Virus record (IMG/VR): IMGVR_UViG_2563366918_000005
Length of the DNA: 42,002 bases
Strand: one strand, 5' to 3'
Source: a virus
Lineage: Duplodnaviria; Heunggongvirae; Uroviricota; Caudoviricetes
Shown here: positions 6,683 to 36,568 of the stretch, one piece after another
How positions within the stretch are numbered: the stretch's first letter is position 1
Layout: every line of letters begins with the position of its first letter
Made by a program: the position numbers and the translations under genes
Notes under the pieces: generated by a model
Databases searched by the model: none
The model's input: the letters and a program-made list of their open reading frames with translations, nothing else
What the model was told of the DNA's origin: nothing

Positions 6683-6699
6683 ATTACCTTTATGGTAAT
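6683..6699. promoter_or_regulatory. Operator palindrome ATTACCTTTATGGTAAT
   Basis: Perfect 6-5-6 inverted repeat in the divergent tailspike / ant-like intergenic region. Confidence 0.5.
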
Positions 6700-6735
6700 T
6701 TGCAAAACGTGCTGGATAGCAAACAAATTATTTGA

Positions 6736-6755
6736 TACTGTATAAATATACAGTT
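6736..6755. promoter_or_regulatory. LexA (SOS) box TACTGTATAAATATACAGTT
   Basis: Perfect CTGT-N8-ACAG with AT-rich spacer; about 20 bp upstream of RBS GGAG (6763-6766) and ATG 6775. Confidence 0.7.
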
Positions 6756-6774
6756 ATTGCATGGAGAAGATAAG

Positions 6775-7032
6775 ATGCAGCGGTATCACTATCCACTGGA
6801 AGACGGATTTACCGAAAGGATTCACACGCCGGGAGGCGTCAGGTCACTGGTGGAGGGATCGCACTTGATGAAATTACTCCGGGATCTCGATAAGGATGGA
6901 TTTAATGTCGATGGCCCACTTGCCGAACTGACTGCACTGATTAACTACGTCACCAGCTCACAGATGTCTATGCGGGATCTGCAAACACATCTCGACTATT
7001 GTGCCGAACAATTACGAAAACAAACCAGATAA
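6775..7032 (+). CDS. Small antirepressor-like protein (standalone homolog of Ant C-terminal domain); SOS-controlled candidate
   Basis: 85 aa from ATG 6775; aligns by eye with the C-terminus of the 7347..8039 product (HTPGGVRSLVEGSHLMKLL…LRDLQTH versus HSPSGVLGLTENSLLMNLL…LRDIQTH); preceded by the LexA box. Confidence 0.6.
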   Translation: MQRYHYPLEDGFTERIHTPGGVRSLVEGSHLMKLLRDLDKDGFNVDGPLAELTALINYVTSSQMSMRDLQTHLDYCAEQLRKQTR

Positions 7033-7062
7033 GGTTTGCAATTACCAAGTGGAGTGCTTATA

Positions 7063-7079
7063 TTTACCTTTGAGGTAAA
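7063..7079. promoter_or_regulatory. Operator palindrome TTTACCTTTGAGGTAAA
   Basis: Perfect inverted repeat of the same family, between the two ant-like genes. Confidence 0.45.
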
Positions 7080-7171
7080 TTTACATCGCACTCCTCTTGT
7101 GCCATAGTAATCGGGCACTGGCAAAATCCAGTGCCGGGATTGGTCTCCCGGATTACTACAGAGGCACATAT

Positions 7172-7192
7172 GCCGCATAAGCGGTTTTTTTT
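7172..7192 (+). terminator. Putative rho-independent terminator
   Basis: CCGC-ATAA-GCGG stem followed by a T8 run; a further hairpin lies at about 7112-7144. Confidence 0.4.
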
Positions 7193-7346
7193 ATGTGTAA
7201 AGCGCACCTATTCTATGGTGGGCTGTGTGGGGGCACCGAAAGGTGCGCCGGGTTCCTTTGTAGCCGGTAAGACCAACTCTGCACAGTTCACCACCATCTG
7301 ATTGGTCTCAGCGGTGGTGATTAACCTAACTACAAAGGTGATCGCC

Positions 7347-8039
7347 ATGAATACCAAACCTTCCATCTTTTCCTTTGAGTCATCCTGCCAGATCCGTATG
7401 TTCATGATTGACGGAGAACCTTGGTTTGTCACCAAAGATGTGTGCAATGCTTTGAATATTGATGTTACACAAGCGAGAAAACTTGATAAAAAAGGCTGGA
7501 ACAAAAAGGGGCTGTATTCAATACAGACCCCTGGTGGAATACAAGAACTATCCATCGTTTCAGAATCAGGTCTCTACATCCTTATTCTGCGTTGCAAAGA
7601 GGCAATGACTGAGGGAACGAGAGCATTCAGATTTCTTGAATGGGTTACAGGCGAGGTTCTTCCTCAGATCCGCCGCACCGGAAGTTACATTAAAAACTCG
7701 CTACCGCAGGAAGAACGCATAAAGATGGTTGCCGACCAGGTAGCCAACGCCACGGCGTCAGCAGTAATGCAGGCGATGAAGATAGAGAACAAAACCTACA
7801 ACGCCCCGCTGAAGCCCGGCTACCGCAGCCTGATTCATTCCCCGTCTGGTGTTCTCGGCCTGACGGAGAACTCACTGCTGATGAATCTGCTGAACCAGTT
7901 ACAGGAAGACGGGCACGACGTATCGGGCGCGGCGGCGGAGCTGACCACCATGTTCTGCTACATCGTCGGTGTGAGCAAATGCCTGCGTGATATCCAGACG
8001 CACGCGGAGTACATCAACGACAAAGCAGGGTTCTTCTGA
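7347..8039 (+). CDS. Antirepressor (N-terminal BRO-N domain, C-terminal Ant/KilAC domain)
   Basis: RBS GGTGA 5 nt before ATG 7347; N-terminus FSFESSCQIRMFMIDGEPWFVTKDVCNALNI matches the BRO-N pattern; C-terminal domain paralogous to 6775..7032. Confidence 0.7.
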   Translation: MNTKPSIFSFESSCQIRMFMIDGEPWFVTKDVCNALNIDVTQARKLDKKGWNKKGLYSIQTPGGIQELSIVSESGLYILILRCKEAMTEGTRAFRFLEWVTGEVLPQIRRTGSYIKNSLPQEERIKMVADQVANATASAVMQAMKIENKTYNAPLKPGYRSLIHSPSGVLGLTENSLLMNLLNQLQEDGHDVSGAAAELTTMFCYIVGVSKCLRDIQTHAEYINDKAGFF

Positions 8040-8103
8040 CGGGCGGCGGCACAGGGATGTGCCTTTAAATAATTCTGTACAGATTGCAGGTGAATAGCTT
8101 ACT

Positions 8104-8120
8104 ATTACCTCACGGGTGAT
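8104..8120. promoter_or_regulatory. Operator-like imperfect palindrome ATTACCTCACGGGTGAT
   Basis: Left half perfect, right half GGTGAT; lies upstream of the mini-ORF and the 8249 gene. Confidence 0.3.
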
Positions 8121-8156
8121 CCATAGCGATTAGGCACCGATACAGGAGGAGCCCAC

Positions 8157-8189
8157 ATGAGAAAATTTGACGAGTACGAAGGCGTTTAA
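8157..8189 (+). other. 10-codon mini-ORF (MRKFDEYEGV) with strong SD; leader-peptide candidate
   Basis: AGGAGG at 8144-8149, 7 nt before ATG 8157; stop at 8187-8189; followed by the hairpin at 8208-8231. Confidence 0.3.
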
Positions 8190-8207
8190 CATTCGGATAG
8201 TTTAATG

Positions 8208-8231
8208 ACGGGGCCATTAGGCCCCGTTTTC
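8208..8231 (+). terminator. Rho-independent terminator / attenuator hairpin
   Basis: ACGGGGCC-ATTA-GGCCCCGT stem followed by TTTT. Confidence 0.55.
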
Positions 8232-8248
8232 ATGTCTGGAGACAGTTT

Positions 8249-8788
8249 GTGTTAAGTGAAGAAATGCAATTTGCCATGGCTGTGGCTCAAATCGTAAGTG
8301 CAGTCGCGGTTTCGCTTGGCTTGTTCATAGCTATCGCTACTATTATTTATAATGTAAATACAGCGAGAAAAGTACACACTTCAGTATTCCTTGGTGAAAG
8401 CAGGTTTGATGTAGATTATAAGAAAGGCCTATCTACTATGCGCCGCATTCACGAATCGAACAAATCATTCCGCTCTTATATGTATCCAAGCAATGGGCAG
8501 GCTGATCTTACGGATGAAGAAAAGACAGAGAAGAGAGAAATAATTTACTGTCTAGGTTTCTACGAACGCATGGCTGTGAGCGTGAAGCGGAAAACTTATG
8601 ATGAGACCATGATTAAGGAAGTATTTTACAGCTCCGTTGTAAATAACTATCAGATTGCGCTACCTCTTATACAAGCCATTAGAGAAAAAGAAAACATAAA
8701 CACATATTTTAAAGAATATGAATGGTTGGCCACACGATGGAAGGATTGCCCATTGAAGGATAAATCCCCGTGGTACAAGTTTTGGTAA
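8249..8788 (+). CDS. Hypothetical membrane-anchored protein (AT-rich accessory gene; exclusion/defence candidate)
   Basis: RBS GGAGA 6 nt before GTG 8249 (alternative ATG 8264); N-terminal TM helix AVAQIVSAVAVSLGLFIAIATIIY then about 140-aa soluble domain; visibly AT-rich; followed by a terminator-like T-run at about 8789-8811. Confidence 0.55.
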   Translation: MLSEEMQFAMAVAQIVSAVAVSLGLFIAIATIIYNVNTARKVHTSVFLGESRFDVDYKKGLSTMRRIHESNKSFRSYMYPSNGQADLTDEEKTEKREIIYCLGFYERMAVSVKRKTYDETMIKEVFYSSVVNNYQIALPLIQAIREKENINTYFKEYEWLATRWKDCPLKDKSPWYKFW

Positions 8789-8882
8789 GCCAGCGCTGCG
8801 GGCTTTTTTTGTGGACGAAACAAAAGTCAGTGCTACACTCATTGACGCCACATTGAGGTGGCTTATAGATGGAAATTTCACA

Positions 8883-9044
8883 ATGAAAAAAGCATTTGCT
8901 GCACTGTTCGTTTTGTTGTCTCTGGTAGCTTCAACTCAGGCTTTTGCCGGTCGTTGTCAGCACGACAGCGATACTGCCGCTGACGGCTCCCGCTGCGGTG
9001 GGCGTTCTGCGGATTCCCGCCCGGGTGGCGGTGGCATTCGTTAA
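8883..9044 (+). CDS. Small secreted Cys-containing peptide (hypothetical)
   Basis: Internal start of track ORF 8811..9044: MKKAFAALFVLLSLVASTQAFA then a 31-aa Gly/Arg/Asp-rich region with 2 Cys; weak RBS. Confidence 0.3.
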   Translation: MKKAFAALFVLLSLVASTQAFAGRCQHDSDTAADGSRCGGRSADSRPGGGGIR

Positions 9045-9046
9045 AA

Positions 9047-9066
9047 ACAAGGCCGCGAAAGCGGCC
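9047..9066 (-). terminator. Terminator at end of late virion operon (between convergent units)
   Basis: GGCCGC-GAAA-GCGGCC hairpin with T-run on the minus strand. Confidence 0.5.
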
Positions 9067-9075
9067 TGTGACATG

Positions 9076-9372
9076 TCACGTCCCTTTTCTGAATGATAGC
9101 CATTCGAAAAATGATGACATTCCACCGCAGACAACAGCAAAGATGATCCCACCAAAGAAGAGAATGCCAGCCTGCCACCACTCCCACCGCCATACATCCA
9201 CAGCGCCAACCATACCAACAATCGCTCCAACAAATGGAATATAGCTCACGATGAAAGCAATGGGGGCTGCAATTATCCAGTGCAATCCCCACCATGATTC
9301 AAGCCCAGCCATAATTGCTGCCAACTGAAAAAGACCAACGACGATATAAACAATGAATCCTATAGCTTGCAT
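9076..9372 (-). CDS. Small Trp-rich integral membrane protein
   Basis: 98 aa, 3 hydrophobic helices; RBS AGGTGA before ATG 9372; stop codon sits inside palindrome GTGACATGTCAC. Confidence 0.55.
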   Translation of the reverse strand: MQAIGFIVYIVVGLFQLAAIMAGLESWWGLHWIIAAPIAFIVSYIPFVGAIVGMVGAVDVWRWEWWQAGILFFGGIIFAVVCGGMSSFFEWLSFRKGT

Positions 9373-9384
9373 GTAGTCACCTAT

Positions 9385-9558
9385 TTACCCAGTAAAAATC
9401 AGAGGCCTCCCCTCAATAAGGCTTGCAACAAGAACTATTCCCTGCACAACAAAGATGAACCAGCAAATAGCTTGAGTCTGAGGGTTAAGAAAATATTTGT
9501 AGCGGTCAATAAATAACAACCCACCAAAAATTATCACACTCAAAATAATTAAAAACAC
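9385..9558 (-). CDS. Possible small membrane protein (57 aa, not in ORF track)
   Basis: GTG start with AAGGAAG 4 nt upstream; product VFLIILSVIIFGGLLFIDRYKYF… with two hydrophobic segments. Confidence 0.3.
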   Translation of the reverse strand: MFLIILSVIIFGGLLFIDRYKYFLNPQTQAICWFIFVVQGIVLVASLIEGRPLIFTG

Positions 9559-9567
9559 AACACTTCC

Positions 9568-12042
9568 TTATTGCGGAGTGACATCCTGAGGTCGCCACCA
9601 GTATGTCTGGTTAAACTCTTTCTTCGAACGTTGCTCCATTTTACGCAAATAACCTGGTGAAAAATACTCCTGCATCTGGTTAAAGATCATGTGATCGAGA
9701 GCCGCCTTTAAGTACCAGAGATTCGCACCTGGCATCAGACCTTTCCCCAGCTTGACCAGATCACCACCAGTCTGCTCATTCTTCCCTTCCACAGCATTTA
9801 ACGGTATGCCCTGAGCAATCTTCACTACGTCATCAACCAGACCAGCTACCGGGCCAAGCATCGACGCCAGCGCGCCGCTTCCGTACCTAGTGTGATCTGA
9901 CAATAAAAAGTCACCGTAAAGGCCAAGACCACCACCTTTCAGTAGAGCACCAAGCCAAAATTTAGCAGCATCTTCTCCTGTCATCTCACGAGGATTACGA
10001 CCAGACGCAAGGTCGTTAAGTTGCTGCGACAAAGCGCCAAGAATGGTCGTACTGGCAATAAACGTCGCAATATATGCCGCACGCCCACCAGCAGACGGCA
10101 TACCCATAGCGCGTGACCAGTGACGCATAACCACCGAGATAGGGAACGATTTAAACAGGAAAACACTTCTCGTTAATTCACCTTTCCATGTTCCACGCTG
10201 AATACCAGAACCGGTTATCAGTTGCTCACGTGCTCCCGGTGTAATAACAGCCATATCAACTTCTTCAGTTACGGCACCGAGCAGTTTACGCATTGCCTCA
10301 AATTTCACGCGTTCAGGCTCACCAAGATGTTTAACTGCTGAATCAGGGATACGCATAATGCTTTCCGGTGTCAGCATCGTATTATTACCGTTCCCCCAGT
10401 CCTCCTGTTGCGCCAGCTTCCATACGCTCCAGTCTGTGTCAGTAATTCCTTTGCTTTTCAGGATACGAAAATCAGAGTCATCGAGGCTACGAAGGTCTGG
10501 TGTCCGTGACACTACTTCTCCCAGGCTTCCCATCATGGTTACGCCATAGGCGCGCTTGTGCGCATCTGACCATGCTGTAAGCCCACTGGCACGCATTACC
10601 GCCGTTGCCGCCCAGCGAGACACTGACGGCCCCATATTATCCATCGCCCAGCGGTTAACGCTGCCAAGTAGAGATTCCATCGCCAGACCAGCGCGGCGCG
10701 CCCGCGCAAGTTCTGTACGGTTCGTTGGGTCCATAGCTTCAAGCTGGTTGCGGAATAACTGGTTCATTGGAAGGTTGGTAACCTTCGCAGACAGATACAT
10801 GGTTCCAAGATCAGAGAACGATGACAGCAACGCGGATCCGAGTCTGCTGGCAACCAGCCAGTTGCGGATATTGTCAGACCATCGCGCGATGTGCGGATTT
10901 GCTACAGGCTGTGTCTTTCCGGAAATAAAGTTGTACAGATTCTCTGTGTTGTTCGCCAGCCGCTCGACTTTACCGGTTTTACTCGGGTTAGCTGTTGCCG
11001 TTTCTGCCTTCACCTGATCAAGAAGAGAGCGGAAAACATGATCTGGGTTTGGGCCATATGTTTCCACCAGTGCAATATCTTTACTGATACCTTCCAGGTG
11101 ACCGACCATGATTTCCCATAGAGAGCGATCGCCATAAAGTTGCTGATATTGCAGATAGGAATCTGCATCTTTGAAATGTATCTGTCGTGATGCATTACCA
11201 CGGTTAGCACGTGCGCCGGAAATTCGCATTCCGGTATCAGTAAGCTTATTCAGCCCACCAGTAGCGATCGTGTTATAAGCCTCTCCAAGAAATGCAGACA
11301 ACTCGGCATCGTTCATCAGTTGTCCATCGGCTCGGATATAATATTTGCGATCCAGCTTACCTATAACATCGCTAACCCACTTATCCTTTGATACCGCCCC
11401 AACCTTTTCCATAGAATGATGTTGAGGGATCCCCCAGTTTTCGAGATAGCCAATGTCCCCGCCAGCATCATTAAACCGGCGGCGCAGTAGATCTGTCACT
11501 TCTCTCCACGCCTTAGCACCTTTTCTTGCTTTAGCATTGCCAGTATTTTGTCCTCGCATTTCATATACCAGGTCACGCACGCCAGCTTCATCTTCAAACA
11601 GGCCAAAAAAGCGAGGATCAACTGCTTCAAATGCCTCCTGCAATTGACTCAATGCATAATCACGAGTGGCTTTTGTTCTGGACTCAACAGAGAGGAAATT
11701 CGATTTACCGTCTGCATTAAAAGCAATAGTACGGTTAAGAGCGCCAAGTTTCCCATCAGCCCCTTGATAGCTATTGATAAATTTATCCAATCTCTGACGT
11801 GCGGCTATAGTGAGGGCCACACGACGTTTCTTTAATGCCGCTTCTCGCTGTAATTCTTCAGATGCCAATTGTGCTGCTCGATATAGCCGCTCTGATTCGG
11901 AAAGTTGTCTCCACGACATCGGGTCATCACGAGCAATGGAGCGCATATTTCGATAAATGCGGTCTTCAATGTTCTGTATTTCTCGCGCCGTTAACGTGCG
12001 CTGCGCCGCCTGCTGAACCGCTTGTATACATTCCTGTCTCAT
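9568..12042 (-). CDS. Large internal virion / ejection protein (T7 gp16-like position)
   Basis: 824 aa; last large gene of the virion operon; assignment by position and size only. Confidence 0.5.
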   Translation of the reverse strand: MRQECIQAVQQAAQRTLTAREIQNIEDRIYRNMRSIARDDPMSWRQLSESERLYRAAQLASEELQREAALKKRRVALTIAARQRLDKFINSYQGADGKLGALNRTIAFNADGKSNFLSVESRTKATRDYALSQLQEAFEAVDPRFFGLFEDEAGVRDLVYEMRGQNTGNAKARKGAKAWREVTDLLRRRFNDAGGDIGYLENWGIPQHHSMEKVGAVSKDKWVSDVIGKLDRKYYIRADGQLMNDAELSAFLGEAYNTIATGGLNKLTDTGMRISGARANRGNASRQIHFKDADSYLQYQQLYGDRSLWEIMVGHLEGISKDIALVETYGPNPDHVFRSLLDQVKAETATANPSKTGKVERLANNTENLYNFISGKTQPVANPHIARWSDNIRNWLVASRLGSALLSSFSDLGTMYLSAKVTNLPMNQLFRNQLEAMDPTNRTELARARRAGLAMESLLGSVNRWAMDNMGPSVSRWAATAVMRASGLTAWSDAHKRAYGVTMMGSLGEVVSRTPDLRSLDDSDFRILKSKGITDTDWSVWKLAQQEDWGNGNNTMLTPESIMRIPDSAVKHLGEPERVKFEAMRKLLGAVTEEVDMAVITPGAREQLITGSGIQRGTWKGELTRSVFLFKSFPISVVMRHWSRAMGMPSAGGRAAYIATFIASTTILGALSQQLNDLASGRNPREMTGEDAAKFWLGALLKGGGLGLYGDFLLSDHTRYGSGALASMLGPVAGLVDDVVKIAQGIPLNAVEGKNEQTGGDLVKLGKGLMPGANLWYLKAALDHMIFNQMQEYFSPGYLRKMEQRSKKEFNQTYWWRPQDVTPQ

Positions 12043-12047
12043 TTAAT

Positions 12048-27055: not shown

Positions 27056-27249
27056 CCAACGCCATTCATGGCCATATCAATGATTTTCTGGTGCGTACCG
27101 GGTTGAGAAGCGGTGTAAGTGAACTGCAGTTGCCATGTTTTACGGCAGTGAGAGCAGAGATAGCGCTGATGTCCGGCGGTGCTTTTGCCGTTACGCACCA
27201 CCCCGTCAGTAGCTGAACAGGAGGGACAGCTGATAGAAACAGAAGCCAC
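26974..27249 (-). CDS. insA: IS1 InsA
   Basis: 91 aa, [42 protein letters not shown]… matches IS1 InsA. Confidence 0.85.
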
Positions 27250-27304
27250 TGGAGCACCTCAAAAACACCATCATACACTAAATCAGTAAGTTGGCAGCAT
27301 CACC

Positions 27305-27313
27305 TGCTGCCTA
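27305..27313. repeat. IS1 target-site duplication TGCTGCCTA (right copy)
   Basis: See left copy. Confidence 0.8.
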
Positions 27314-27864
27314 TTACCATGGGTAAACAATATCATTAACGTATGGCAAGCAAAGCCTCTTGATAATAATGACTCAATCGAAAATCACCTGAAGGCAAGA
27401 AAAATCCAGCGTGAAACAAGACTGCAGAGGTTATTGGCTAAAAAAGATGTTACATACGACAAAGTTAAGACTGGCGCGGAAAAAGACATCCAAGAGATGA
27501 AAGAAGAGATTATTCGATCAAAGAATAGTATGGGGGAATTGACTGCCGAGTTGAAAGCTAAAGATGACGAATTGAGATCCGCCAGTGCTCAGTTAGCAGC
27601 TCTAAATCATTCATTAAAAGAGATATCGGAAACTCTTGGAAGAATGAATGAGGCATATAAGACCCTCCAAAATGATTTCGACGAATACAAACTCAAATAC
27701 CCTGAAAAATCTCAAATAAAAAGCCTTGAACTTGGCAACGGCCAAACAATTAGCAACTTTTTGGAGCAACACAACTTATCCGGATTAAAATCTGGTAAGC
27801 CAAACGTTTTTAATAACTTTGGTGTTCTATCTGGATTATCAGGTTTCGAGGATAAAAATAAAGA

Positions 27865-29340
27865 CTAAGCATATGGATCGTACTCGGTAAGCGCCTTGCC
27901 TTGCTGGTTCTGCTGCCCGGGAAGTCGCAGGCGCTTTGACACCGGGAAAGCAAACGTCAGCAGTAGCGCATCGCCTTTACCAGGCGAACGCCCAAGTCGT
28001 TCTTTGATATCTTCCTTCGGTTCGATAACGATTTTACCGTCCACGCGAACTTTGTACTCTGCCGCCGACAGATCGTCCGCTGTTTCCTGGTCATCCAGCA
28101 TCCCGCCCAACCTCAGCCATGTCTTGCATGAGTTGAACATCTCCCCGCGCTTGTTGAGCATCTGAGGGTCAGTTGACGCACCACCGAACGGAACAAGTTG
28201 CCATGTGCGCCCCCAGCCGTCACCGATTGACTTCAGACCGGTTCCGTAACCGAAGTCGATGAACACCGCGTCAGCCTGATACTGGTCTTCAAAGTCAGCG
28301 ATACGCTTCGCCATAATCAGATCGTCAGTGGTCTTGTTGCCAGTCCATAGCACCTTACTATGCAACCCCTGCCGCAGGTATATCACCGCGTCATCAACGC
28401 CTGAATATGCCGGGTCAACACCGATTATCACCGGAGCATGTGCCACCTGCGCAGCGGTTACCACCCGTTTCATTGCCTCATCAGTAAGACCGGTAGGGAT
28501 AAACTGCAATTCAGATGCATCAGGGAATATGCCGCGCACACGGATTTTAACGAAGTCGCTGTCTTCCCCGTAGTCATCAACCCATTTCTGCAACTGCTGT
28601 TTGTTAGTACCTTCCACCGTCCGGCTGTCAATCTGCGCAGTTTTCCAGCGGTGTTTGTATTTGCGGAAACATTCGCGAAAACGCCCGGTATTACGTGTAG
28701 GGTTTCCGAACGCCACCCAGATAATCTCAGTGTCTTCGTCCGTAAGCGCACCCTCAGCAACTTCCCACACCAGATCCGCAATGTTCGACGCTTCATCGAA
28801 TACCACGATGATGCGTTTGCGCTCGTTGTGTAGTCCGGCGAATGCCTCAGTGTTGTGCTCAGACCAGGGGATTGCGTCAGCTCGCCACCGCTTGTCGTGC
28901 CCAGGATCATTGCTGTACATCGCGGTAGCGGTACAGGTAAACCAGTCTTTCGTGATAGCAAGGTTCGACCACTTGATAATTTCCGGCCAGGTCTTCGTTC
29001 GTAGCTGGTTGTCGGTGTTGGCGGTCACCACGACCTTACAATCCTCGCAAGTGGACATGCCCCAGTTGATCAGCATTGAGATGAATGCGGATTTACCAAT
29101 ACCGTGACCAGAAGCACGTGCCAGCATAAGCGGCTGATAACGCGTCTCTGGATTCTGCAGGTGATCACGTATCTCTCGGAACGCATCGGCCTGCCACTGA
29201 CGTGGGCCGGTAGCATGTGCCAGTTCAGTCCCCTCTTCCCCCCACGGGAACGCATAGAGGGCATAGCCAAGCGGATCGTGAGTGAACCCTGCAATATCCT
29301 CGATTAACTGCTCTTCAGGAGATAACGCTGTATCTGTCAC
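27865..29340 (-). CDS. Terminase large subunit
   Basis: 491 aa; Walker A-like ARASGHGIGKS; GTG start overlapping terS stop; convergent with the accessory gene (4-bp stop overlap). Confidence 0.85.
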   Translation of the reverse strand: MTDTALSPEEQLIEDIAGFTHDPLGYALYAFPWGEEGTELAHATGPRQWQADAFREIRDHLQNPETRYQPLMLARASGHGIGKSAFISMLINWGMSTCEDCKVVVTANTDNQLRTKTWPEIIKWSNLAITKDWFTCTATAMYSNDPGHDKRWRADAIPWSEHNTEAFAGLHNERKRIIVVFDEASNIADLVWEVAEGALTDEDTEIIWVAFGNPTRNTGRFRECFRKYKHRWKTAQIDSRTVEGTNKQQLQKWVDDYGEDSDFVKIRVRGIFPDASELQFIPTGLTDEAMKRVVTAAQVAHAPVIIGVDPAYSGVDDAVIYLRQGLHSKVLWTGNKTTDDLIMAKRIADFEDQYQADAVFIDFGYGTGLKSIGDGWGRTWQLVPFGGASTDPQMLNKRGEMFNSCKTWLRLGGMLDDQETADDLSAAEYKVRVDGKIVIEPKEDIKERLGRSPGKGDALLLTFAFPVSKRLRLPGQQNQQGKALTEYDPYA

Positions 29341-29933
29341 TGATTACCATCCTGACGTTCTTTGAGTCGCTTCCTGGCTGCTGCTATGCGATCAGCAATT
29401 GTCACATTCACATTAACATCCAGACGTTCTTTGAACGCGTTGACATCAACATGCTTACCAATCAGCTCAAGGTTCTTCACCTTGTCAGGCCATTTAATTT
29501 TTTTGAGGATTGTCTCTATCGAATCCTCGTTCATGTTCATGATGGTCGATGACAAATCAAAGCCACTAAGCGTAGTGCGCCAGATTTTCGGCCACTCACG
29601 GATTGGTTTAAGGCTCCCATCGTCGTTGAGGATGTCGATCACGTCCATCTGGTCGATCTGCACCAGGCGCATGAGAACGTAATCAGCACTGACGCGCATT
29701 CGTTTGTTGCGCTCCTCCATCAACTCGGCAATCCGTTTTTGAATGCGTTCATCGCGCATCATGACACTGGCTTTAACTGCCGCTGTATTTGGGGAGAATC
29801 CTGCGTTAATCGCTGCCTGAGTCTGGTTTTCAGGCGTTTTGATGTATGACTGGCAATAAGCCTCCTGCATTGCTGTTAGTGGCTTAAATTGCGTTGATTT
29901 GCGTTTATAGGTTTTAGGTTCAGCAGGCATCAT
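29337..29933 (-). CDS. Terminase small subunit
   Basis: Start placed at the MMPAEPK Mets (29933/29930, RBS GGTGG); the longer track ORF (to 30011) would read through an upstream terminator and repeat region; about 198 aa. Confidence 0.6.
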   Translation of the reverse strand: MMPAEPKTYKRKSTQFKPLTAMQEAYCQSYIKTPENQTQAAINAGFSPNTAAVKASVMMRDERIQKRIAELMEERNKRMRVSADYVLMRLVQIDQMDVIDILNDDGSLKPIREWPKIWRTTLSGFDLSSTIMNMNEDSIETILKKIKWPDKVKNLELIGKHVDVNAFKERLDVNVNVTIADRIAAARKRLKERQDGNQ

Positions 29934-29940
29934 AACCACC

Positions 29941-29969
29941 GTGGTAATAGTTACCGTTGTGGTAATAGT
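29941..29969 (-). promoter_or_regulatory. Two direct repeats GTGGTAATAGT just upstream of terS (late control region candidate)
   Basis: Copies at 29941-29951 and 29959-29969, between terminator and terS start. Confidence 0.3.
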
Positions 29970-29976
29970 ACCATGC

Positions 29977-30002
29977 AAAATAAAGCCGCCATAGTTGGCG
30001 GC
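29977..30002 (-). terminator. Terminator between nin-like operon and late (terminase) operon
   Basis: GCCGCCA-ACTA-TGGCGGC hairpin followed by TTTATTTT on the minus strand. Confidence 0.5.
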
Positions 30003-30051
30003 AGTATTCAAAACCCATCAAATTCATCATGCATAATCTACTCGTGACATG

Positions 30052-30390
30052 TCACACTATTAATTTCGTTTCATGCCAGCCTTTAGTCACCCAGCATTGC
30101 GAGTCACCATTACACGGGCATGAATTAACTGGAACTCTCTCGCCGCACTTACCGCAACATTTTCTGCTGATCGATTTTATACGCCCGCGCACGCGTGCAT
30201 CATCCTGGCGGATCAGTAACGCTATATACTCACCAAATTCGTAAGGCGCACGCCCGGGGCGACGCGTGGCACAGTTACGCTCCAGCATTTCAATTTCCTG
30301 AGCATCAAGCACAATTTCCAGCTTACGCACACCAGATGCAGCTTGTCTGGCTCTCTGAGCGGCTTTGCGCTCTGCTGCTGATTTAGCCAT
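30052..30390 (-). CDS. Hypothetical Cys-rich (zinc-binding?) protein; late-regulator candidate
   Basis: 112 aa; RBS AGGAAA before ATG 30390; C-terminal CCGKCGERVPVNSCPCNGDSQC cluster; last gene before the late operon. Confidence 0.45.
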   Translation of the reverse strand: MAKSAAERKAAQRARQAASGVRKLEIVLDAQEIEMLERNCATRRPGRAPYEFGEYIALLIRQDDARVRGRIKSISRKCCGKCGERVPVNSCPCNGDSQCWVTKGWHETKLIV

Positions 30391-30736
30391 TCTGATTTTC
30401 CTGCATCATGAGGAAGACAATCATGGCGGCGCGGAGAACATTTTCATGCTCATGCTCCCAAATATGGTTGGCAGAAGCACCGTGCAAACCGCTTTCGTTC
30501 CAGTCCCAGAGAATGTTAACTCCGTTATCAGCAATAATCGGCCATGAGGCGCTCGGATCATTGCAGTAGTCAGGTAAAGGGTTTAATGGCTCGAAAGTTG
30601 TATCAGCATTTCCGTAATACCATTTGTTGGTGTTATTCCCTGACGTTTCCGGTTTACATGCCCAAAGGCCTTTAAAAATTATGTCTCCTACCATTCTGTT
30701 AATTTCAAAATCACTTAACTGTGAATAGTCCATCAT
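30383..30736 (-). CDS. Hypothetical protein
   Basis: 117 aa; RBS AAGGTGG; coupled to neighbours. Confidence 0.45.
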   Translation of the reverse strand: MMDYSQLSDFEINRMVGDIIFKGLWACKPETSGNNTNKWYYGNADTTFEPLNPLPDYCNDPSASWPIIADNGVNILWDWNESGLHGASANHIWEHEHENVLRAAMIVFLMMQENQNG

Positions 30737-31437: not shown

Positions 31438-31439
31438 AG

Positions 31440-31631
31440 CTATTTCACCTTAATCTCAACATTTCGCAGCTTTAGCTCTACTGGCAGGTCTGACTTTCCG
31501 GTTAATGCTAATGCGAGATTTTCTGGAGTAATGAGAGCCGTTATTGTTTTCCCCATCGCCAGACGAATAGTCATTCGTATCTCGCGATCGTCACATGCTC
31601 CCGGTCGAACAATTGAGATTTGTCCGTTCAT
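31440..31631 (-). CDS. Hypothetical small protein
   Basis: Start at ATG 31631 with strong RBS GGAGAG; 63 aa. Confidence 0.4.
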   Translation of the reverse strand: MNGQISIVRPGACDDREIRMTIRLAMGKTITALITPENLALALTGKSDLPVELKLRNVEIKVK

Positions 31632-31632
31632 A

Positions 31633-32118
31633 TCACTCTCCTTTGATGCGAATGCCTGTTGCAATGCTGTTTATGATGCTGTCAGTGCATGGGGTAGAAA
31701 GCTGGGCATCTCCAACAATTTTCATGACCTCAACATCTGCATATCGAATACCGAGGTGTATCAGACCGGCTATGCCTGACTTAAGCCGAGCATTTTCCAT
31801 AAATAGAACTTTTGCCCGCTGTTTTTCTGCTTCAAGCTCAACGCGCAGCTTCCCTACCGTTAGCGCAATTTCCTCGTTCTCCTGGTCGCGGCGTTTGATG
31901 TATTGCTGGTTTCTTTCCCGTTCATCCAGTAGTGCCAGCACGGTTTCTGGTCCGGCCAGAAATTTGAAGGCGTTGAGCGCATCAATATCCACACCGTAAT
32001 CTTTAAGTTCCTGTTCGCTTATCAGATCATCATCAACTGGCAACATTAACAGGCGTTCCATTGCCGGAATTGCACGTTCTGCCGCCTCACGCAGTGCCTG
32101 ATAGTTAATTTTGGTCAT
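31633..32118 (-). CDS. Hypothetical coiled-coil protein (Ead/Ea22-like?)
   Basis: 161 aa, N-terminus MTKINYQALREAAE…; early region. Confidence 0.4.
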   Translation of the reverse strand: MTKINYQALREAAERAIPAMERLLMLPVDDDLISEQELKDYGVDIDALNAFKFLAGPETVLALLDERERNQQYIKRRDQENEEIALTVGKLRVELEAEKQRAKVLFMENARLKSGIAGLIHLGIRYADVEVMKIVGDAQLSTPCTDSIINSIATGIRIKGE

Positions 32119-32119
32119 A

Positions 32120-32419
32120 TCACATCACCCTGAAGCCGTTGCATTTACGTAAAAAATCGCAGATATAGCCCTTCATTTTTTTATGCCAATCTCGATCATT
32201 CCCATTGCACCAACCATCAGGTGGAGTCCAGTTTTCTATCAGAGCAGCCATTTTCTTTGCTTTCGCCGGAGTAGCTGTTGCGGTATCGCAGTAATGACGA
32301 GTGTCAACCAACGCATCCATACCATCGATATCAAGTACGCAAAACCATGTGTGATTCGGAATTCCTACAGGTGGTATTTGTTGCCCACGTCGGCGTTTAT
32401 CAATGAGATATACACTCAC
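32120..32419 (-). CDS. Hypothetical protein
   Basis: 99 aa; coupled. Confidence 0.4.
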   Translation of the reverse strand: MSVYLIDKRRRGQQIPPVGIPNHTWFCVLDIDGMDALVDTRHYCDTATATPAKAKKMAALIENWTPPDGWCNGNDRDWHKKMKGYICDFLRKCNGFRVM

Positions 32420-33000
32420 TGGTTGCCTCCTTTGCGAAGCTGGGCAGCAAAGTCACGGATAGTGTCATCAAGGTCTGGGCACAACAGATGGTCAGCAAAC
32501 ATCTCTACCCCCTGCGCACGTACTTCAGCCAGAAAAGTGTCGGTGGCTGGGGTTTCGATATTAGGTAGAAGCGCATAATCGCAAATCGTATCGATCGCAG
32601 GATCACAACAGTCATCCTCGTTGCGTGGTCGTTCGCCAACCTTCGTTGACGATTGCATGATGATTCCCCAGCAAATACTATCGACCTCTTCGCTCCATCC
32701 ATCGCAAGCATCACCGCGATAGTCGTCGATTGCAGCCTCAGCCGATTCGATAGCTTCCTCAGCAGTTTTGTGCCATTCGAAATTATGCTCAGAGCCATAT
32801 GAGAAATATGAATGTCCCGCCTTCAGCCCCGCATTCTCCGCTGCCATCGCATTAGCACGCACCAGTTGCACTTCCAGTTGCGTTGCCAAATCGCTGATCA
32901 GCTTTGCCACACTACGCATATCAACGGCACCACATTCTGCTTTCAGTTCCGAAGCCATCTCATGCCCGGCGGCAACTAACCCTTTGATATTACTTTCCAT
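32416..33000 (-). CDS. Hypothetical acidic protein (Ead/Ea22-like?)
   Basis: 194 aa. Confidence 0.4.
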   Translation of the reverse strand: MESNIKGLVAAGHEMASELKAECGAVDMRSVAKLISDLATQLEVQLVRANAMAAENAGLKAGHSYFSYGSEHNFEWHKTAEEAIESAEAAIDDYRGDACDGWSEEVDSICWGIIMQSSTKVGERPRNEDDCCDPAIDTICDYALLPNIETPATDTFLAEVRAQGVEMFADHLLCPDLDDTIRDFAAQLRKGGNQ

Positions 33001-33061
33001 CTTTACCCTCGCTTATCCACATAACTTATTGATTACATTGATAACTAAAAAGATCGTCGAT

Positions 33062-33406
33062 TCAGAACTCTTCGATGTTCCAGCCACCACCTGCTTTCTT
33101 TGGTTTAACCGTTACCCCGATGATTCGGAACGGATACTGATCTGCGGCGACTTTGGTTTTCACCCTGGCGTCGTCGGTCCAGAAACCTTTCACTTCGTGC
33201 AGTTCCATCTCGCCGGTGGCGAGCATCACAGCAAAATCGGGCGTATAGAACGTGTTGTCAGCTAACCGCAGCTTGATACCCTCAAATCGATACCAGACGA
33301 TTTCTCCTGCACGTTTACGCAGCTCAAGGTGCTGGCAATACGCAGATTCTGTTTTGTTCATCTGTCCTGTTTTGAGTCGACCAAGAGCCTGTATCTGTTT
33401 TCTCAT
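33062..33406 (-). CDS. Putative PD-(D/E)xK-type nuclease
   Basis: 114 aa; motif …YTPDFAVM…EMELHEVKG fits a D…ExK signature; operator pair immediately upstream. Confidence 0.4.
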   Translation of the reverse strand: MRKQIQALGRLKTGQMNKTESAYCQHLELRKRAGEIVWYRFEGIKLRLADNTFYTPDFAVMLATGEMELHEVKGFWTDDARVKTKVAADQYPFRIIGVTVKPKKAGGGWNIEEF

Positions 33407-33408
33407 GA

Positions 33409-33425
33409 TTTACCCCTGAGGTAAT
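33409..33425. promoter_or_regulatory. Operator palindrome TTTACCCCTGAGGTAAT
   Basis: Abuts the ATG (33406) of the nuclease-like gene. Confidence 0.45.
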
Positions 33426-33470
33426 TAAAAACCACATAAGACACGAAATCAATAGATTTTAGAATATTTT

Positions 33471-33487
33471 ATTACCTAACAGGTAAT
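33471..33487. promoter_or_regulatory. Operator palindrome ATTACCTAACAGGTAAT
   Basis: Perfect 6-5-6 palindrome 62 bp from the previous site. Confidence 0.5.
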
Positions 33488-33523
33488 TATCGAAACGTAA
33501 AAAAATGCGCTATCGCGCTGGTA

Positions 33524-34324
33524 TTACTTGATAAATCCTGCCGCCTTTCCTCGCCTGTATTCCTCCATCAGCCACTGCGCCGGTGTTATTCCCCCAAGGG
33601 TGGCGGCGTTAGGCATGCACCCGAAACTTCGCCCTGGTGGATGGTAAACGTCTCTCCCTGTGTCCGGAGGCGTACTCATGGGTTCTGGCTTTGCCTGTAT
33701 GCTGATCACCGGATCGGGTATCTGCTGTCCGGAAGCCACCTTTTTCGCCCAATCATCGAGCAGCCTGCGCGCGTGTTTCTCAACCTCTATCTCGCTAAGC
33801 TGGCGCTGATACATTGCACGGCGGGTATCACATACGACCCAGTACATAACCGGATGCCGCCACGGGAATCTTTCGGGACCACCAGGATATAAACTTTTTT
33901 CCTTGCTGTACCGGTGAAACTCCGTCATCACATCGTCAATGGTGACGCCAAGAACCATCTTGCTGTCTTTGCACCACTTGATGAATTGCCCTGGCGACGG
34001 CCAGAACGGAGAATCACTGGCGCGGGCGTGGCGCATACCAGCAGAAACCTGTTCACGGGTTCGGATCCCCCCTTCGGCAAACGCAGCAATCCACTGCTGT
34101 TTTGCAGCAACTTCCTGCTCTGGCGTCTTCAGGTTGGTTACCACTGCCGCCGGAAACAGTTGTTTCAACTGTTTGAAAAGGGCATCAACAAGCCTCTCTG
34201 CTGACATGTTCACTACGTTGTCATTGTTGACGTACTGATGCTCATAACCTGACATGCGAGAAAGGGCTTCTCCGTCACGGTTTTGTATTGCGGTAAAAAC
34301 GTTGTTCACAAGAAATCCTCCCAT
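33524..34324 (-). CDS. Replication protein P-like (helicase loader)
   Basis: Block …KQQWIAAFAEGGIRTREQVSAGMRHARASDSPFWPSPGQFIKWC… parallels lambda P (…RRQWVLAFRENGITTMEQVNAGMRVARRQNRPFLPSPGQFVAWC…) as remembered; start may be at an internal Met (34255). Confidence 0.7.
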   Translation of the reverse strand: MGGFLVNNVFTAIQNRDGEALSRMSGYEHQYVNNDNVVNMSAERLVDALFKQLKQLFPAAVVTNLKTPEQEVAAKQQWIAAFAEGGIRTREQVSAGMRHARASDSPFWPSPGQFIKWCKDSKMVLGVTIDDVMTEFHRYSKEKSLYPGGPERFPWRHPVMYWVVCDTRRAMYQRQLSEIEVEKHARRLLDDWAKKVASGQQIPDPVISIQAKPEPMSTPPDTGRDVYHPPGRSFGCMPNAATLGGITPAQWLMEEYRRGKAAGFIK

Positions 34325-35097
34325 GCTTCAGGGCTGTTCCAGTGCGGAACGTTGTTATCAGGTAATGTTGATTGCTTCTGTCTGCTAATCTGCAGCCGCC
34401 TTGCCAGCTTCTGCTCCCACTGCGCCTGATGGTATGCCTTACCCTCAGCCATCCAGTAAATTCTGAACTCTGCAAGTTCCTGTGCCGTTGGCAGACTGTC
34501 CAGGTAGATCCCCTGCAATGAGCTTTTCCGAAGAAAGTCATCTGATGGTTGCCATTGTTCATGCATGACAAATTTGCCTAATTGCCCTGGCCCACCAGGA
34601 GGAACAAAGTTATTCATCACGGCGTTGTTTGCGCCGGGGTCATGAGGCACAGAATCCCCGCTTTTTGTCCTGCTCTCCCTCTCTTGGTTAAATGACTGGT
34701 TATATGACTGGTTCTGGATCCCGTTTTTGGGATCATTCAACATCCCGTTTTTGGGTATATTCCCGTTTTCGGTAACATTACCGTTTTCGGGTTCATTACC
34801 CCCTTCCCGGTTGCCTTTAATGTTCCCGTTTTTGGTTATATTAAGAGAGAAAACCCGCACTCTTTTCGTCGCTCCCTTTCTCTCTCCGGTATCTGAAATA
34901 AGCCCCATTTTCATGAGCGATATAAGCCCGGCCTGCACGGTTTTTTTATTCAGGCAAGTGTCTTTAACGAGGCGTTCTATGCTGGGGTAGCAGAGGTTAT
35001 ATTCATCGGCTCTGTCAGCCATCGAGAGCAGTATGAGCTTTAATGACGAGCTACCTGGATCTGTCTCCCAGGCCCAATCTGTTGCATGTCTGCTCAT
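34306..35097 (-). CDS. Replication initiator (lambda O-like) with origin iterons inside the gene
   Basis: N-terminal wHTH-like domain; central repetitive linker (ENGN repeats) encoded by iterons; directly upstream of P-like gene. Confidence 0.6.
   Translation of the reverse strand: MSRHATDWAWETDPGSSSLKLILLSMADRADEYNLCYPSIERLVKDTCLNKKTVQAGLISLMKMGLISDTGERKGATKRVRVFSLNITKNGNIKGNREGGNEPENGNVTENGNIPKNGMLNDPKNGIQNQSYNQSFNQERESRTKSGDSVPHDPGANNAVMNNFVPPGGPGQLGKFVMHEQWQPSDDFLRKSSLQGIYLDSLPTAQELAEFRIYWMAEGKAYHQAQWEQKLARRLQISRQKQSTLPDNNVPHWNSPEAWEDFL
34692..34839. repeat. Origin-like iteron array (five or more ~17-bp repeats TCCCGTTTT(T/C)GGG, 18-bp period) plus 2x ATGACTGGTT
   Basis: Repeats start at 34718, 34742, 34760, 34778, 34823; flanking AT-rich segment; inside O-like gene as for ori-lambda. 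Confidence 0.6.
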
Positions 35098-35112
35098 GAT
35101 TAATCTCCGCTA

Positions 35113-35376
35113 TCAGCTTGAATGTTGTGGGGAGGAATTAATCATGATCTGCTTAATCTCTGCCCTGATACGACGGTTTGATTCCATGGTGCACTCAACA
35201 CAGTGTCCGTTGTAAACCCAGCGTTCACTGTCATGTCCGTGCTTACATGTTTTTCCGGTGTAGTAGCGTTTAAGTCCGCGCTTTGCGGCATCAATACGTG
35301 TAATGATTTCCATGGTAAGCCCTGTTATTAGTATTGGGATTACGGTCATTTTGTGCTGACACAAAAAAAATATCAA
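35113..35376 (-). CDS. Small Cys/His zinc-ribbon-like protein (hypothetical)
   Basis: …YYTGKTCKHGHDSERWVYNGHCVEC…; start uncertain (35376 or internal Met at 35313). Confidence 0.4.
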   Translation of the reverse strand: MIFFLCQHKMTVIPILITGLTMEIITRIDAAKRGLKRYYTGKTCKHGHDSERWVYNGHCVECTMESNRRIRAEIKQIMINSSPQHSS

Positions 35377-35392
35377 CCAGATTTGGTTTTTT

Positions 35393-35409
35393 ATTACCTT
35401 TGAGGTACG
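35393..35409. promoter_or_regulatory. Operator-like site ATTACCTTTGAGGTACG
   Basis: Left half perfect, right half GGTACG. Confidence 0.35.
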
Positions 35410-35463
35410 AATAGATATGAAAAGACCGCCGGGTGGCGGTCTACAGAGGGTTGTGGCTGGATA

Positions 35464-35694
35464 TCATGAGTAGAAGAAGTATGCCAGTTCTGCTTTTGAG
35501 CGCAGCCATTGTCTTGTTTTACAGGCTTTAAAAAGCCCATTCATCAATACTTTACCTGGCATTTTGCGCTTACCTGTTAAGTGAGTCTGGATATAGTGAC
35601 TCGTCGTTCCGGCTTCCTGTGCGAAGGCTTCACGCTCATCCGGAGTAAGTGCAAGCCAGTGCTTTTTGAAATCGAAATGTCCGTTATCGCTCAT
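35464..35694 (-). CDS. Cro-like small DNA-binding regulator (first gene of leftward early operon)
   Basis: 76 aa; divergent from repressor gene across the three-operator region. Confidence 0.5.
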   Translation of the reverse strand: MSDNGHFDFKKHWLALTPDEREAFAQEAGTTSHYIQTHLTGKRKMPGKVLMNGLFKACKTRQWLRSKAELAYFFYS

Positions 35695-35729
35695 AGCTAT
35701 TGCCTGATATTTATTTCAGATAATAAATA

Positions 35730-35746
35730 TTCACCCATAAGGTAAC
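35730..35746. promoter_or_regulatory. Operator (weak) TTCACCCATAAGGTAAC
   Basis: One mismatch in left half. Confidence 0.3.
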
Positions 35747-35760
35747 AAAAATCAAGGATA

Positions 35761-35777
35761 GTTACCTATGAGGTGCA
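35761..35777. promoter_or_regulatory. Operator GTTACCTATGAGGTGCA
   Basis: Left half matches family; right half degenerate. Confidence 0.35.
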
Positions 35778-35794
35778 TTTACCTGTTGGGTAAT
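35778..35794. promoter_or_regulatory. Operator palindrome TTTACCTGTTGGGTAAT
   Basis: Near-perfect; with the two adjacent sites forms an OR-like triple operator between cro-like and repressor genes. Confidence 0.5.
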
Positions 35795-35848
35795 ATTGCT
35801 TTAAATTGAATCATCTACTGATTCATATATGAGGCGATTTTCCAGAAA

Positions 35849-36433
35849 ATGAAAAGTATCCAGGACGTCCGCAGGCAAAATCTCAACGACTTGATCGACC
35901 GTGAATTCAATGGTGTTCAGACGCGGATGGCAGAAAAACTTGGAACTCAGGCAAATCTGGTAAACCGCTGGGCTCTTGGCAAGAAGGTTATCGGCGACCA
36001 GGTTGCACGAAAAATTGAAGCTGCCGCCAATAAACCCCGTAACTGGCTTGATATTGATCGCTCGCTTTCTCAGGAGGGTTTTCAGCCTGTCGGCCCGAGC
36101 GATATAGGTCAGCTGGCGGCTCACAACCTGGAACGCTGGATGAGCGAAAGCCGCGACCTTTCAACGCAGGGAAAACTACACCGCGCATCCGGCGTCGCCC
36201 AGGTGACAATCAGCCGCCTGTTAAACAATGAGGTCAGCGTTTCCATTTCCACCCTGGAGAATGTTGCATCCGCATTCGGGCGTCACGGCTATGAATTACT
36301 GATTCACCCGCACGACCCTGCGACCATCAACTATGATCGCTCGCGCTACGCATTGTTACCCGAAACCGAGAAAGCAAAGATCGAAAGTTACATTGAATTT
36401 GTCATCAACCAGAACGAAAAAAACAAACAATAA
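35849..36433 (+). CDS. Immunity repressor candidate with two HTH domains, no peptidase domain
   Basis: 194 aa; HTH-like segments (…QTRMAEKLGTQANLVNRWALGKK… and …LHRASGVAQVTISRLLNNE…); no Ala-Gly / Ser-Lys autocleavage module seen; sits between operator clusters. Confidence 0.6.
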   Translation: MKSIQDVRRQNLNDLIDREFNGVQTRMAEKLGTQANLVNRWALGKKVIGDQVARKIEAAANKPRNWLDIDRSLSQEGFQPVGPSDIGQLAAHNLERWMSESRDLSTQGKLHRASGVAQVTISRLLNNEVSVSISTLENVASAFGRHGYELLIHPHDPATINYDRSRYALLPETEKAKIESYIEFVINQNEKNKQ

Positions 36434-36453
36434 AATCATATTTTTCAGTAAGT

Positions 36454-36478
36454 AAGCCGCCAGAAGGCGGCTTTTTTA
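36454..36478 (+). terminator. Rho-independent terminator after repressor gene
   Basis: AAGCCGCC-AGAA-GGCGGCTT followed by TTTTATT. Confidence 0.7.
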
Positions 36479-36489
36479 TTGCCTATTCG

Positions 36490-36506
36490 ATTACCTAATG
36501 GGTAAT
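36490..36506. promoter_or_regulatory. Operator palindrome ATTACCTAATGGGTAAT
   Basis: Perfect 6-5-6 palindrome upstream of -35 TTGACA. Confidence 0.5.
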
Positions 36507-36524
36507 TTTTTTAACTCATATCTA

Positions 36525-36552
36525 TTGACATCAAACCAGATACGCATAATTA
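36525..36552 (+). promoter_or_regulatory. PL-like early promoter (TTGACA-16-TAATTA)
   Basis: -35 TTGACA 36525-36530, -10 TAATTA 36547-36552, bracketed by operators. Confidence 0.5.
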
Positions 36553-36568
36553 TTACCTCAACGGTAAC
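36552..36568. promoter_or_regulatory. Operator ATTACCTCAACGGTAAC
   Basis: Overlaps the -10 / +1 of the PL-like promoter. Confidence 0.45.

Follow-up and report, generated by a model that had tools for sequence, protein, structure and literature searches.

The prophage and its repeated palindrome

The DNA analysed here, 42,002 nucleotides (nt) of IMG/VR record IMGVR_UViG_2563366918_000005 (called the window, at its full length), is a segment of an Escherichia coli chromosome carrying a phiV10/epsilon15-like prophage (genus Uetakevirus) integrated at guaA, and the element under study is a 17-bp palindrome, ATTACC-N5-GGTAAT, that recurs between its genes. The prophage extends from the att core ATTGAGTGGGAATGATT (1873-1889; core sequence from PMC9782041) to the integrase start at 42002. 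It is preceded by the host genes yfgH and yfgI (1-1071), an IS200 element (1219-1677) that adjoins the prophage end, and the STnc490 RNA of IS200 (1687-1810). Immunity regions resembling that of the prophage were found in 567 of 5426 complete E. coli genomes, and relatives of phiV10 serve as O157 detection phages. Central to this analysis are the lysogeny repressor gene rep (35849..36433, plus strand; 194 amino acids), whose product joins an N-terminal helix-turn-helix (HTH) domain to an HTH_3-like C-terminal domain for tetramerisation and Ant binding, and the divergent cro-like gene (35464..35694, minus strand; 76 amino acids), whose product is a possible second binder of the palindromes. The third is ant (6775..7032, plus strand), encoding a small antirepressor predicted to inactivate Rep.

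A preliminary description, made by eye, had reported the palindrome at 13 or more intergenic sites, and a computed scan bears out both the repetition and the placement. Three copies are exact (6683, 33471 and 36490), against none in 100 dinucleotide-preserving shuffles, and allowing up to two mismatches raises the number to 14, compared with 1.18 expected and attained by no shuffle. With corrected gene starts, 13 of these 14 copies fall in the 8.5% of the DNA that is non-coding (binomial P = 1.7e-13), and a Markov null taken from the AT-richer non-coding DNA alone predicts 0.24 copies where 13 were observed; these figures speak against a similar frequency in shuffled or coding DNA. The extended consensus reads ATTACCT-N3-AGGTAAT. 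A symmetrised weight matrix of the kind proposed earlier, built without the copies at 35730 and 35761, returned 15 sites at a threshold of 12 bits compared with about one in shuffles; among coding matches, 3658 alone reaches 12 bits and the second, 16106, scores 11.4 bits.

Eleven of the 13 coordinates listed by eye are within two mismatches of the consensus, whereas 35730 (three mismatches) and 35761 (four) do not deserve the term near-perfect, and two sites with one mismatch each, at 29950 and 29932, had been overlooked. The total for the window is 15 sites, including these two, which abut the start codon of terS. One two-mismatch copy (16362) lies inside a virion gene; it scores less than 8 bits on the matrix and was rejected, probably being a chance match. 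A different palindrome, TGTGACATGTCAC, is not enriched. Sites are present at PL and PR/PRM, at two other early promoters, at terS, in the ant/tailspike region and at the isrK-C4-BRO antirepressor module, and are also found at DUF4760, the tRNA-Arg promoter and an accessory gene disrupted by IS1; almost all transcription units of the window have a site. As had been noted by eye, several of them overlap predicted -10 hexamers; at terS one doubles as a ribosome-binding site.

Sites in the immunity region and along the transcription units

Between rep and the cro-like gene lie three sites. O1 (TTCACCCATAAGGTAAC; 35730..35746; three mismatches, 14.1 bits) occupies the spacer and -35 of the predicted PR (TTGTTA-17-TATTAT, minus strand, 35748-35720), while O2 (GTTACCTATGAGGTGCA; 35761..35777; four mismatches, 12.0 bits) directly abuts O3 (TTTACCTGTTGGGTAAT; 35778..35794; one mismatch, 19.9 bits), which is next to rep. 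O1 has counterparts in epsilon15 and SPC32H, where the triple shows the same spacing of 17 plus 30/31 bp, and the O2/O3 pair, 17 bp apart, recurs in epsilon15 (33340/33357), SPC32H (34389/34406) and BUCT711 (6401/6418). On the other side of rep, OL distal (36490..36506; perfect, 21.6 bits) is situated just past the rep terminator (36454-36473), and OL proximal (36552..36568; one mismatch, 20.1 bits) is 62 bp away. The predicted PL (TTGACA-17-AATTAT, 36525-36553) overlaps OL proximal with its -10 and its start site.

A second pair precedes the DUF1064 gene. O-R3 distal (33471..33487; perfect, 23.4 bits) follows the terminator downstream of gene P, and O-R3 proximal (33409..33425; one mismatch, 22.0 bits) is fused to a -10 (TTTAAT) and ends 2 nt before the DUF1064 start codon, the two being again 62 bp apart. 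The PL and DUF1064 cassettes have a common layout, in which a terminator is followed by the distal dyad, about 19 nt, the -35 (ATCTATTGA), a 17-nt spacer, the -10, the proximal dyad and the gene, and the last two bases of the -10 are the first two of the proximal dyad. In all 12 pairs from six genomes the centre-to-centre spacing is 62-63 bp, without insertions or deletions and with intervening DNA that is approximately 40% diverged. A single site, O-R2 (35393..35409; two mismatches, 18.8 bits), lies past the cro terminator (35442-35423), and 16 nt separate it from the -35 of the promoter of the replication genes, which follows downstream (predicted as TTGATA-17-CAAAAT, 35376-35348); the position of O-R2 is orthologous in five aligned relatives.

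The two overlooked sites bear on the annotation of the small terminase gene terS. O-terS-1 (29950..29966; one mismatch, 18.2 bits) is orthologous to an annotated epsilon15 repressor site at 12-27, and the right half of O-terS-2 (29932..29948; one mismatch, 14.8 bits), which ends 1 nt before an ATG, constitutes the terS ribosome-binding site. The order upstream of terS on the minus strand is a terminator (30002-29985), the two dyads and then ATG CCT GCT GAA. In the near-identical prophage of NZ_AP022222.1, terS is annotated from a TTG at 30011, and phiV10 is annotated likewise (41-715). To judge from the sequence, this start is over-extended by 27 codons, across the terminator and both dyads (29931-30011). 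We place the start at the ATG at 29930 (terS at 29337..29930, minus strand, 594 nt) because the resulting N-terminus, MPAEPK, matches that of epsilon15 terS and the length of 594 nt matches ZX5 and TL-2011b. Two minus-strand operons each carry the same 14-bp palindrome, TGTGACATGTCACG, at the 3' end (9067-9080 and 30043-30056). This palindrome is kept in epsilon15 before the terS terminator; with only two copies, it shows no statistical enrichment.

In the divergent control region of ant and the tailspike gene, O-ant/tsp (6683..6699; perfect, 23.7 bits) is orthologous to an annotated epsilon15 site (19895-19911). It lies about 100 bp upstream of the tailspike gene and 38 bp upstream of a perfect LexA box, CTGTATAAATATACAG (6738..6753), which overlaps the ant promoter and is the only intergenic CTGT-N8-ACAG match within the window. 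We infer from this box that ant is under LexA control. Downstream, O-isrK/BRO (7063..7079; two mismatches, 22.2 bits) overlaps the -10 of a promoter read by eye (TTGCAA-17-TATATT). There follow, on the plus strand, an isrK-like small RNA (7115-7191; Rfam RF01394, 74.7 bits) and a C4 antisense RNA (7211-7298; RF01695, 78.6 bits), both above the gathering threshold and both without annotation in the phiV10 record. In tandem they form the leader of a BRO-N family antirepressor-like gene (7347..8039, plus strand; Pfam Bro-N, E = 1.9e-13; PHROG 'anti-repressor Ant', E = 3.5e-51). The isrK-like RNA is of the Hfq-binding type, and isrK, C4 and BRO resemble the secondary immunity module immI of P1 and P7. 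A site precedes the BRO module wherever the module occurs (phiV10 20496, Tyrion 21392, ZX5 2042, TL-2011b 34384), and epsilon15 and SPC32H have neither the module nor this site.

The cargo genes have sites of their own. O-4760 (ATTACCTCACGGGTGAT; 8104..8120; one mismatch, 18.6 bits) is fused to a candidate -10 (TACTAT) upstream of DUF4760 (8249-8788), and the different cargo genes that occupy this slot in ZX5 (977) and TL-2011b (33332, 34477) possess their own dyads in unrelated flanks. The stretch between this site and the DUF4760 start (8158-8226, plus strand) contains a 10-codon open reading frame, MRKFDEYEGV, with a strong Shine-Dalgarno sequence, then a GC hairpin and a T-run, and is attenuator-like. 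O-moron (26253..26269; two mismatches, 19.9 bits) sits within ATGACC-17-TATAAT, in its spacer and -10, and precedes the accessory gene at 26273-27868 (plus strand), and the 17-mer found there, ATTACCTTAAAGGTATA, is identical to that before int in phiV10, ZX5, TL-2011b and SPC32H. IS1 (insA/insB, minus strand; approximately 26530-27300) interrupts this accessory gene, which is intact, with 272 amino acids, in strain WP8-S17-ESBL-12. A PADLOC search of the cargo genes returned no defence family.

O-tRNA/head (25636..25652; one mismatch, 21.7 bits) is located 15 nt past a TTGACA directed at tRNA-Arg (UCU) (25974..26050, plus strand), from which it is separated by a 322-nt leader; on the opposite strand it precedes the first gene of the head operon by 89 nt. 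Like the single dyads at 7063, 8104 and 26253, it overlaps a candidate -10. Its position and the TGTCAA element are conserved in five aligned relatives, including those without the tRNA. The GC-rich leader (25652-25973, plus strand) folds at -122 kcal/mol (z = -3.35; none of 100 shuffles as stable) and has no Rfam match; in the equivalent region of the epsilon15 record an RNase III site is annotated.

A second element, CATATRTGGTT, occurs in eight copies against 1.4 expected, among them minus-strand copies at 25585-25595, 6644-6654, 3860-3870 and 33430-33440, and is also present in the cassettes of relatives. At the head operon, the tailspike gene and the lysis genes, relatives aligned per class place it 14-18 nt upstream of a -10-like hexamer, without a good -35. 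The element may be part of a late promoter or the site of a late activator, and in the lysis cassette it belongs to a 14-bp palindrome, AACCATATATGGTT. We also considered the 17-bp dyads at the head, tailspike and lysis promoters as activator sites of late promoters; this was rejected, as their distances from the element of about 48, 36 and 39 bp are not helically phased, and these dyads are better assigned to the divergent promoters of ant, the tRNA and the conversion genes.

The repressor and its operators among relatives

The 17-bp dyads are most probably operators of the lysogeny repressor Rep, as the preliminary description had suspected. We favour this prediction because of the enrichment of the dyads, their placement at and overlap with predicted promoters, their conservation, the annotation of epsilon15 and the homology of Rep and Ant to a characterised pair. 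In the RefSeq record of Salmonella phage epsilon15 (NC_004775.2 / AY150271), seven features are entered as 'protein_bind: repressor, lysogeny', an annotation that is itself predicted. All seven are perfect ATTACC-N5-GGTAAT dyads at positions orthologous to sites of the window, namely three at PL and one each before terS, before the first head gene, past the replication genes and in the interval that separates the tail fibre gene from gp19, the Ant homologue. For a phage of the same genus, both the motif and its attribution to the repressor are therefore public already, and the window confirms known biology and leaves current concepts unchanged. For the phiV10 lineage, the public phiV10 record holds no repressor-binding features, the motif string is absent from the searchable full texts, in which no description of the sites was found, and a literature search combining Uetakevirus with operator returned only the ZX5 paper, which defines no operators.

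The phiV10 and vB_EcoP_ZX5 repressors have the same sequence as Rep (100% identity). Overexpression of the ZX5 repressor resulted in no free phage and lowered endolysin and holin transcripts by at least 99.97% (PMC9782041). Residues 1-190 of Rep align to the Rep protein of Salmonella phage SPC32H (PDB 5D50_A, E = 4e-42), and its C-terminal domain aligns to the tetramerisation domain of that protein; identity is 54% in the N-terminal domain and 36% in the rest. The only Pfam families found in Rep are HTH families (HTH_3), and an S24 peptidase domain is lacking. Published work describes SPC32H Rep as tetrameric, with palindromic binding sites and with different dimers contributing to each DNA-binding pair, and has the tetramer dismantled by the tetrameric antirepressor Ant; the fold of the C-terminal domain is of a type that has been linked to DNA looping (PMC9986798). 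The product of ant in the window matches SPC32H Ant (PDB 5D50_E, E = 3.5e-46). The proposal that one DNA-binding protein ties immunity, antirepressors, tRNA and accessory cargo together is upheld by sites at each of these, and is refined by the finding that 6775-7032 would encode a Rep-specific Ant preceded by a LexA box.

With the matrix derived from the window, 11-17 sites each were detected in phiV10, Tyrion (Enterobacter), BUCT711 (Klebsiella), epsilon15, SPC32H, ZX5 and TL-2011b. These seven relatives cover all four Rep sequence groups of the phage collection, which show 100, 75-78, 45 and 42% identity to the Rep of the window, and their sites lie at orthologous positions. Ten classes can be told apart: two dyads abutting terS; one 89 nt upstream of the head operon; one in the divergent ant/tailspike region; one before isrK-C4-BRO where this is present; one in the divergent conversion-gene/lysis region of genomes with conversion genes (a class that the window lacks); one before int (not covered by the window); the PL pair; the rep-cro triple (17 and 30-31 bp); one past the cro terminator; and, downstream of the replication genes, a pair preceding the first gene. 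When orthologues from four diverged genomes are compared in nine classes, pairwise identity averages 0.95 for the half-sites, 0.50 for the central five bases and 0.57 for the 15-bp flanks. Conservation of the half-sites alone is the signature of what we take to be a protein site with dyad symmetry. All four Rep groups share the recognition-helix residues NLVNRW without change. The operator and the helix residues of Rep and the Cro-like protein are invariant over four host genera, with Rep only 42% identical, and the specificity appears frozen, unlike that of lambdoid phages.

Evidence from outside this set points the same way. When IMG/VR was scanned for pairs of dyads with a spacing of 61-63 bp, at least 120 loci were returned, mostly on contigs of about 40 kb, and 89 of the 120 matches listed have a Rep homologue (40-100% identity) within the fetched stretch. 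The cI protein of Pseudomonas phage PseuP_224 is homologous to Rep in its N-terminal domain alone (39% identity), its C-terminal domain being of the S24 type, and just upstream of its gene (3921-3975) lie ATTACC-N4-GGTAAT, TTTACC-N4-GGTAAC and a weaker third dyad, AATACC-N4-GGGAAT. These dyads, with the same half-sites, lie outside the Uetakevirus family and would be independent evidence linking the TTACC half-site to the N-terminal domain.

In relatives, a dyad is positioned between a possible -35 and a good -10 of the O-antigen conversion genes (loci L007 24691, L005 26407, L004 24703 and L003 24781). Three of these four dyads, and also the DUF4760 dyad of the window (8104), contain a GGTGAT half-site, which may mark a class of low-affinity operators.

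Regulatory reading, alternatives and known systems

If Rep acts as its SPC32H homologue does, a tetramer with four N-terminal HTH domains would bind two dyads at a time. It would hold the distal and proximal dyads of PL and of the DUF1064 promoter, exactly 62 bp or about six helical turns apart, with the promoter in a small loop, and on the proximal dyads it would cover the -10 together with the start site. Abutting dyads would serve it at PR/PRM, at the isrK-C4-BRO, DUF4760, tRNA-Arg and accessory-gene promoters it would occupy single dyads on the -10 or the spacer, and at terS two bound dyads would cover the ribosome-binding site. In a lysogen, almost all transcription units would thus be silenced directly by Rep. 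Upon DNA damage, LexA would leave its box and Ant would be made and take the Rep tetramers apart, so that every operator is freed simultaneously and the early, replication, packaging, second-antirepressor and cargo units come on together. The BRO-type second antirepressor would reinforce the switch, and the Cro-like protein probably uses the same sites later in infection. Our confidence in the looping detail is lower than that in the sites as Rep operators.

Several points weigh against the assignment to Rep. The sites at 35393, 6683, 36490 and 33471 lie at about -60 from the nearest predicted start, where a bound repressor alone would not block RNA polymerase, and all promoter assignments are consensus matches. 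The conversion genes, which have an operator in their promoter in relatives, are expected to be on in lysogens. The binding of Rep to the dyads is a prediction, as is the epsilon15 annotation. Finally, the Cro-like protein is as conserved as Rep and may be the main or a shared ligand.

This last point leads to the strongest alternative, namely that the dyad serves chiefly the Cro-like protein or another regulator (the gp49-like protein at 30052-30390, AlpA or PerC) and that Rep acts in the rep-cro region only. The Cro-like protein is 58-84% identical across the family, with an HTH-like stretch, AGTTSHYIQ.HLT, that is invariant in all groups, and it belongs to a 'transcriptional repressor' PHROG (phrog_35, E = 5.6e-13), although Pfam gives no match; moreover, CI and Cro of lambdoid phages use common operators, as is known from textbooks. 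Nevertheless, the strongest site of the immunity region abuts rep, the curators of epsilon15 attributed the sites to the repressor, and the distant PseuP_224 cI, which shares only the N-terminal domain with Rep, has the same half-sites upstream. We therefore regard this alternative as unlikely, and a sharing of sites by the Cro-like protein would fit the assignment to Rep and not replace it.

A reading that is considerably less probable still treats the copies as remnants of a promoter cassette that was duplicated or mobile, kept by descent and without a protein-binding role of their own. The PL and O-R3 cassettes are indeed alike beyond the dyads, for instance at the -35 (ATCTATTGA), and the identity of ATTACCTTAAAGGTATA at the int promoter of relatives and at the accessory gene of the window could be read in the same sense. 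However, the half-sites alone are conserved among orthologues, with the central 5 bp and the flanks varying freely, sites before unrelated cargo genes have unrelated flanks, and dyad symmetry is kept throughout. A host transcription factor exploited by the phage can hardly be credited as the binder of the dyad: the motif recurs unchanged in phages of Escherichia, Enterobacter, Klebsiella and Salmonella, but no site lies in the host flank (1-1872), the motif co-occurs with Rep homologues, and we know of no enterobacterial regulator with this consensus.

With the dyads assigned to Rep, the site map would predict which prophage genes are silent in lysogens and which are activated together upon SOS induction. 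It would tie immunity, two antirepressor layers, packaging, the tRNA and cargo to one repressor, and it corrects the terS start. The fixed 62-bp pairs offer a concrete test case for looping by a tetrameric repressor. We put forward, as a speculative idea with the odds against it, a joint reading in which the DNA specificity of the repressor is frozen, differences in immunity reside in the antirepressor layers and cargo is recruited through operator-bearing promoters. If this were true, the operator would be wired into 10-17 promoters per genome, every new cargo unit included, and any immunity differences would lie in the variable Ant and C4/BRO layers, as between P1 and P7. Cargo would then enter the lysis-lysogeny circuit by bringing or gaining an operator-bearing promoter, and weaker GGTGAT variants might keep some of it on in lysogens.

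With regard to known systems, the layout shares with lambda CI/Cro a divergent repressor/cro arrangement with three sites in between (35730, 35761 and 35778), a repressed PL-like promoter and, likely, cooperative binding to multiple sites. It is not of the lambda CI type, because Rep has no S24 autocleavage domain. Induction would proceed by an antirepressor; in addition, the sites occupy at least 10 regions compared with two in lambda and include pairs 62 bp apart. The stoperators of mycobacteriophage L5, bound by gp71, are likewise numerous repressor sites distributed over the genome in short intergenic regions, but they are asymmetric 13-mers in one orientation that act on elongating polymerase, whereas those of the window are palindromes on predicted promoters.

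Phage P1 is nearest in logic. Its C1 repressor has many dispersed operators, including Op51 before the c4-icd-ant (immI) operon. In both phages one primary repressor would govern many units, one of them a C4 RNA plus antirepressor module preceded by an operator, and in both the primary repressor and its operator are conserved among relatives while the antirepressor modules vary. However, P1 is a plasmid prophage, its operators are asymmetric 17-bp sequences of another kind, C1 is unrelated to Rep, which has an XRE-type HTH, and no homology to P1 was found beyond the C4 RNA. The system of the window is thus of neither the P1 C1 nor the L5 type, because both the operator type and the protein differ.

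The closest correspondence is with phages of the same repressor family. SPC32H (PDB 5D50, 5D4Z) shares full-length Rep and Ant homologues, a LexA box at ant, a Rep without an autocleavage domain and the same operators in its genome; the window adds a second antirepressor module of the BRO type. With epsilon15 it has in common the identical dyad, the orthologous places (terS, the head operon, ant/tailspike, PL and after the replication genes) and the repressor family. Its Rep is only 42% identical overall, and 54% in the N-terminal domain, to the epsilon15 protein, and it differs as an E. coli prophage of the phiV10 lineage with extra sites at isrK-C4-BRO, DUF4760 and the IS1-disrupted gene. 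On all testable features, the window belongs to the predicted Rep operator regulon of epsilon15 and SPC32H.

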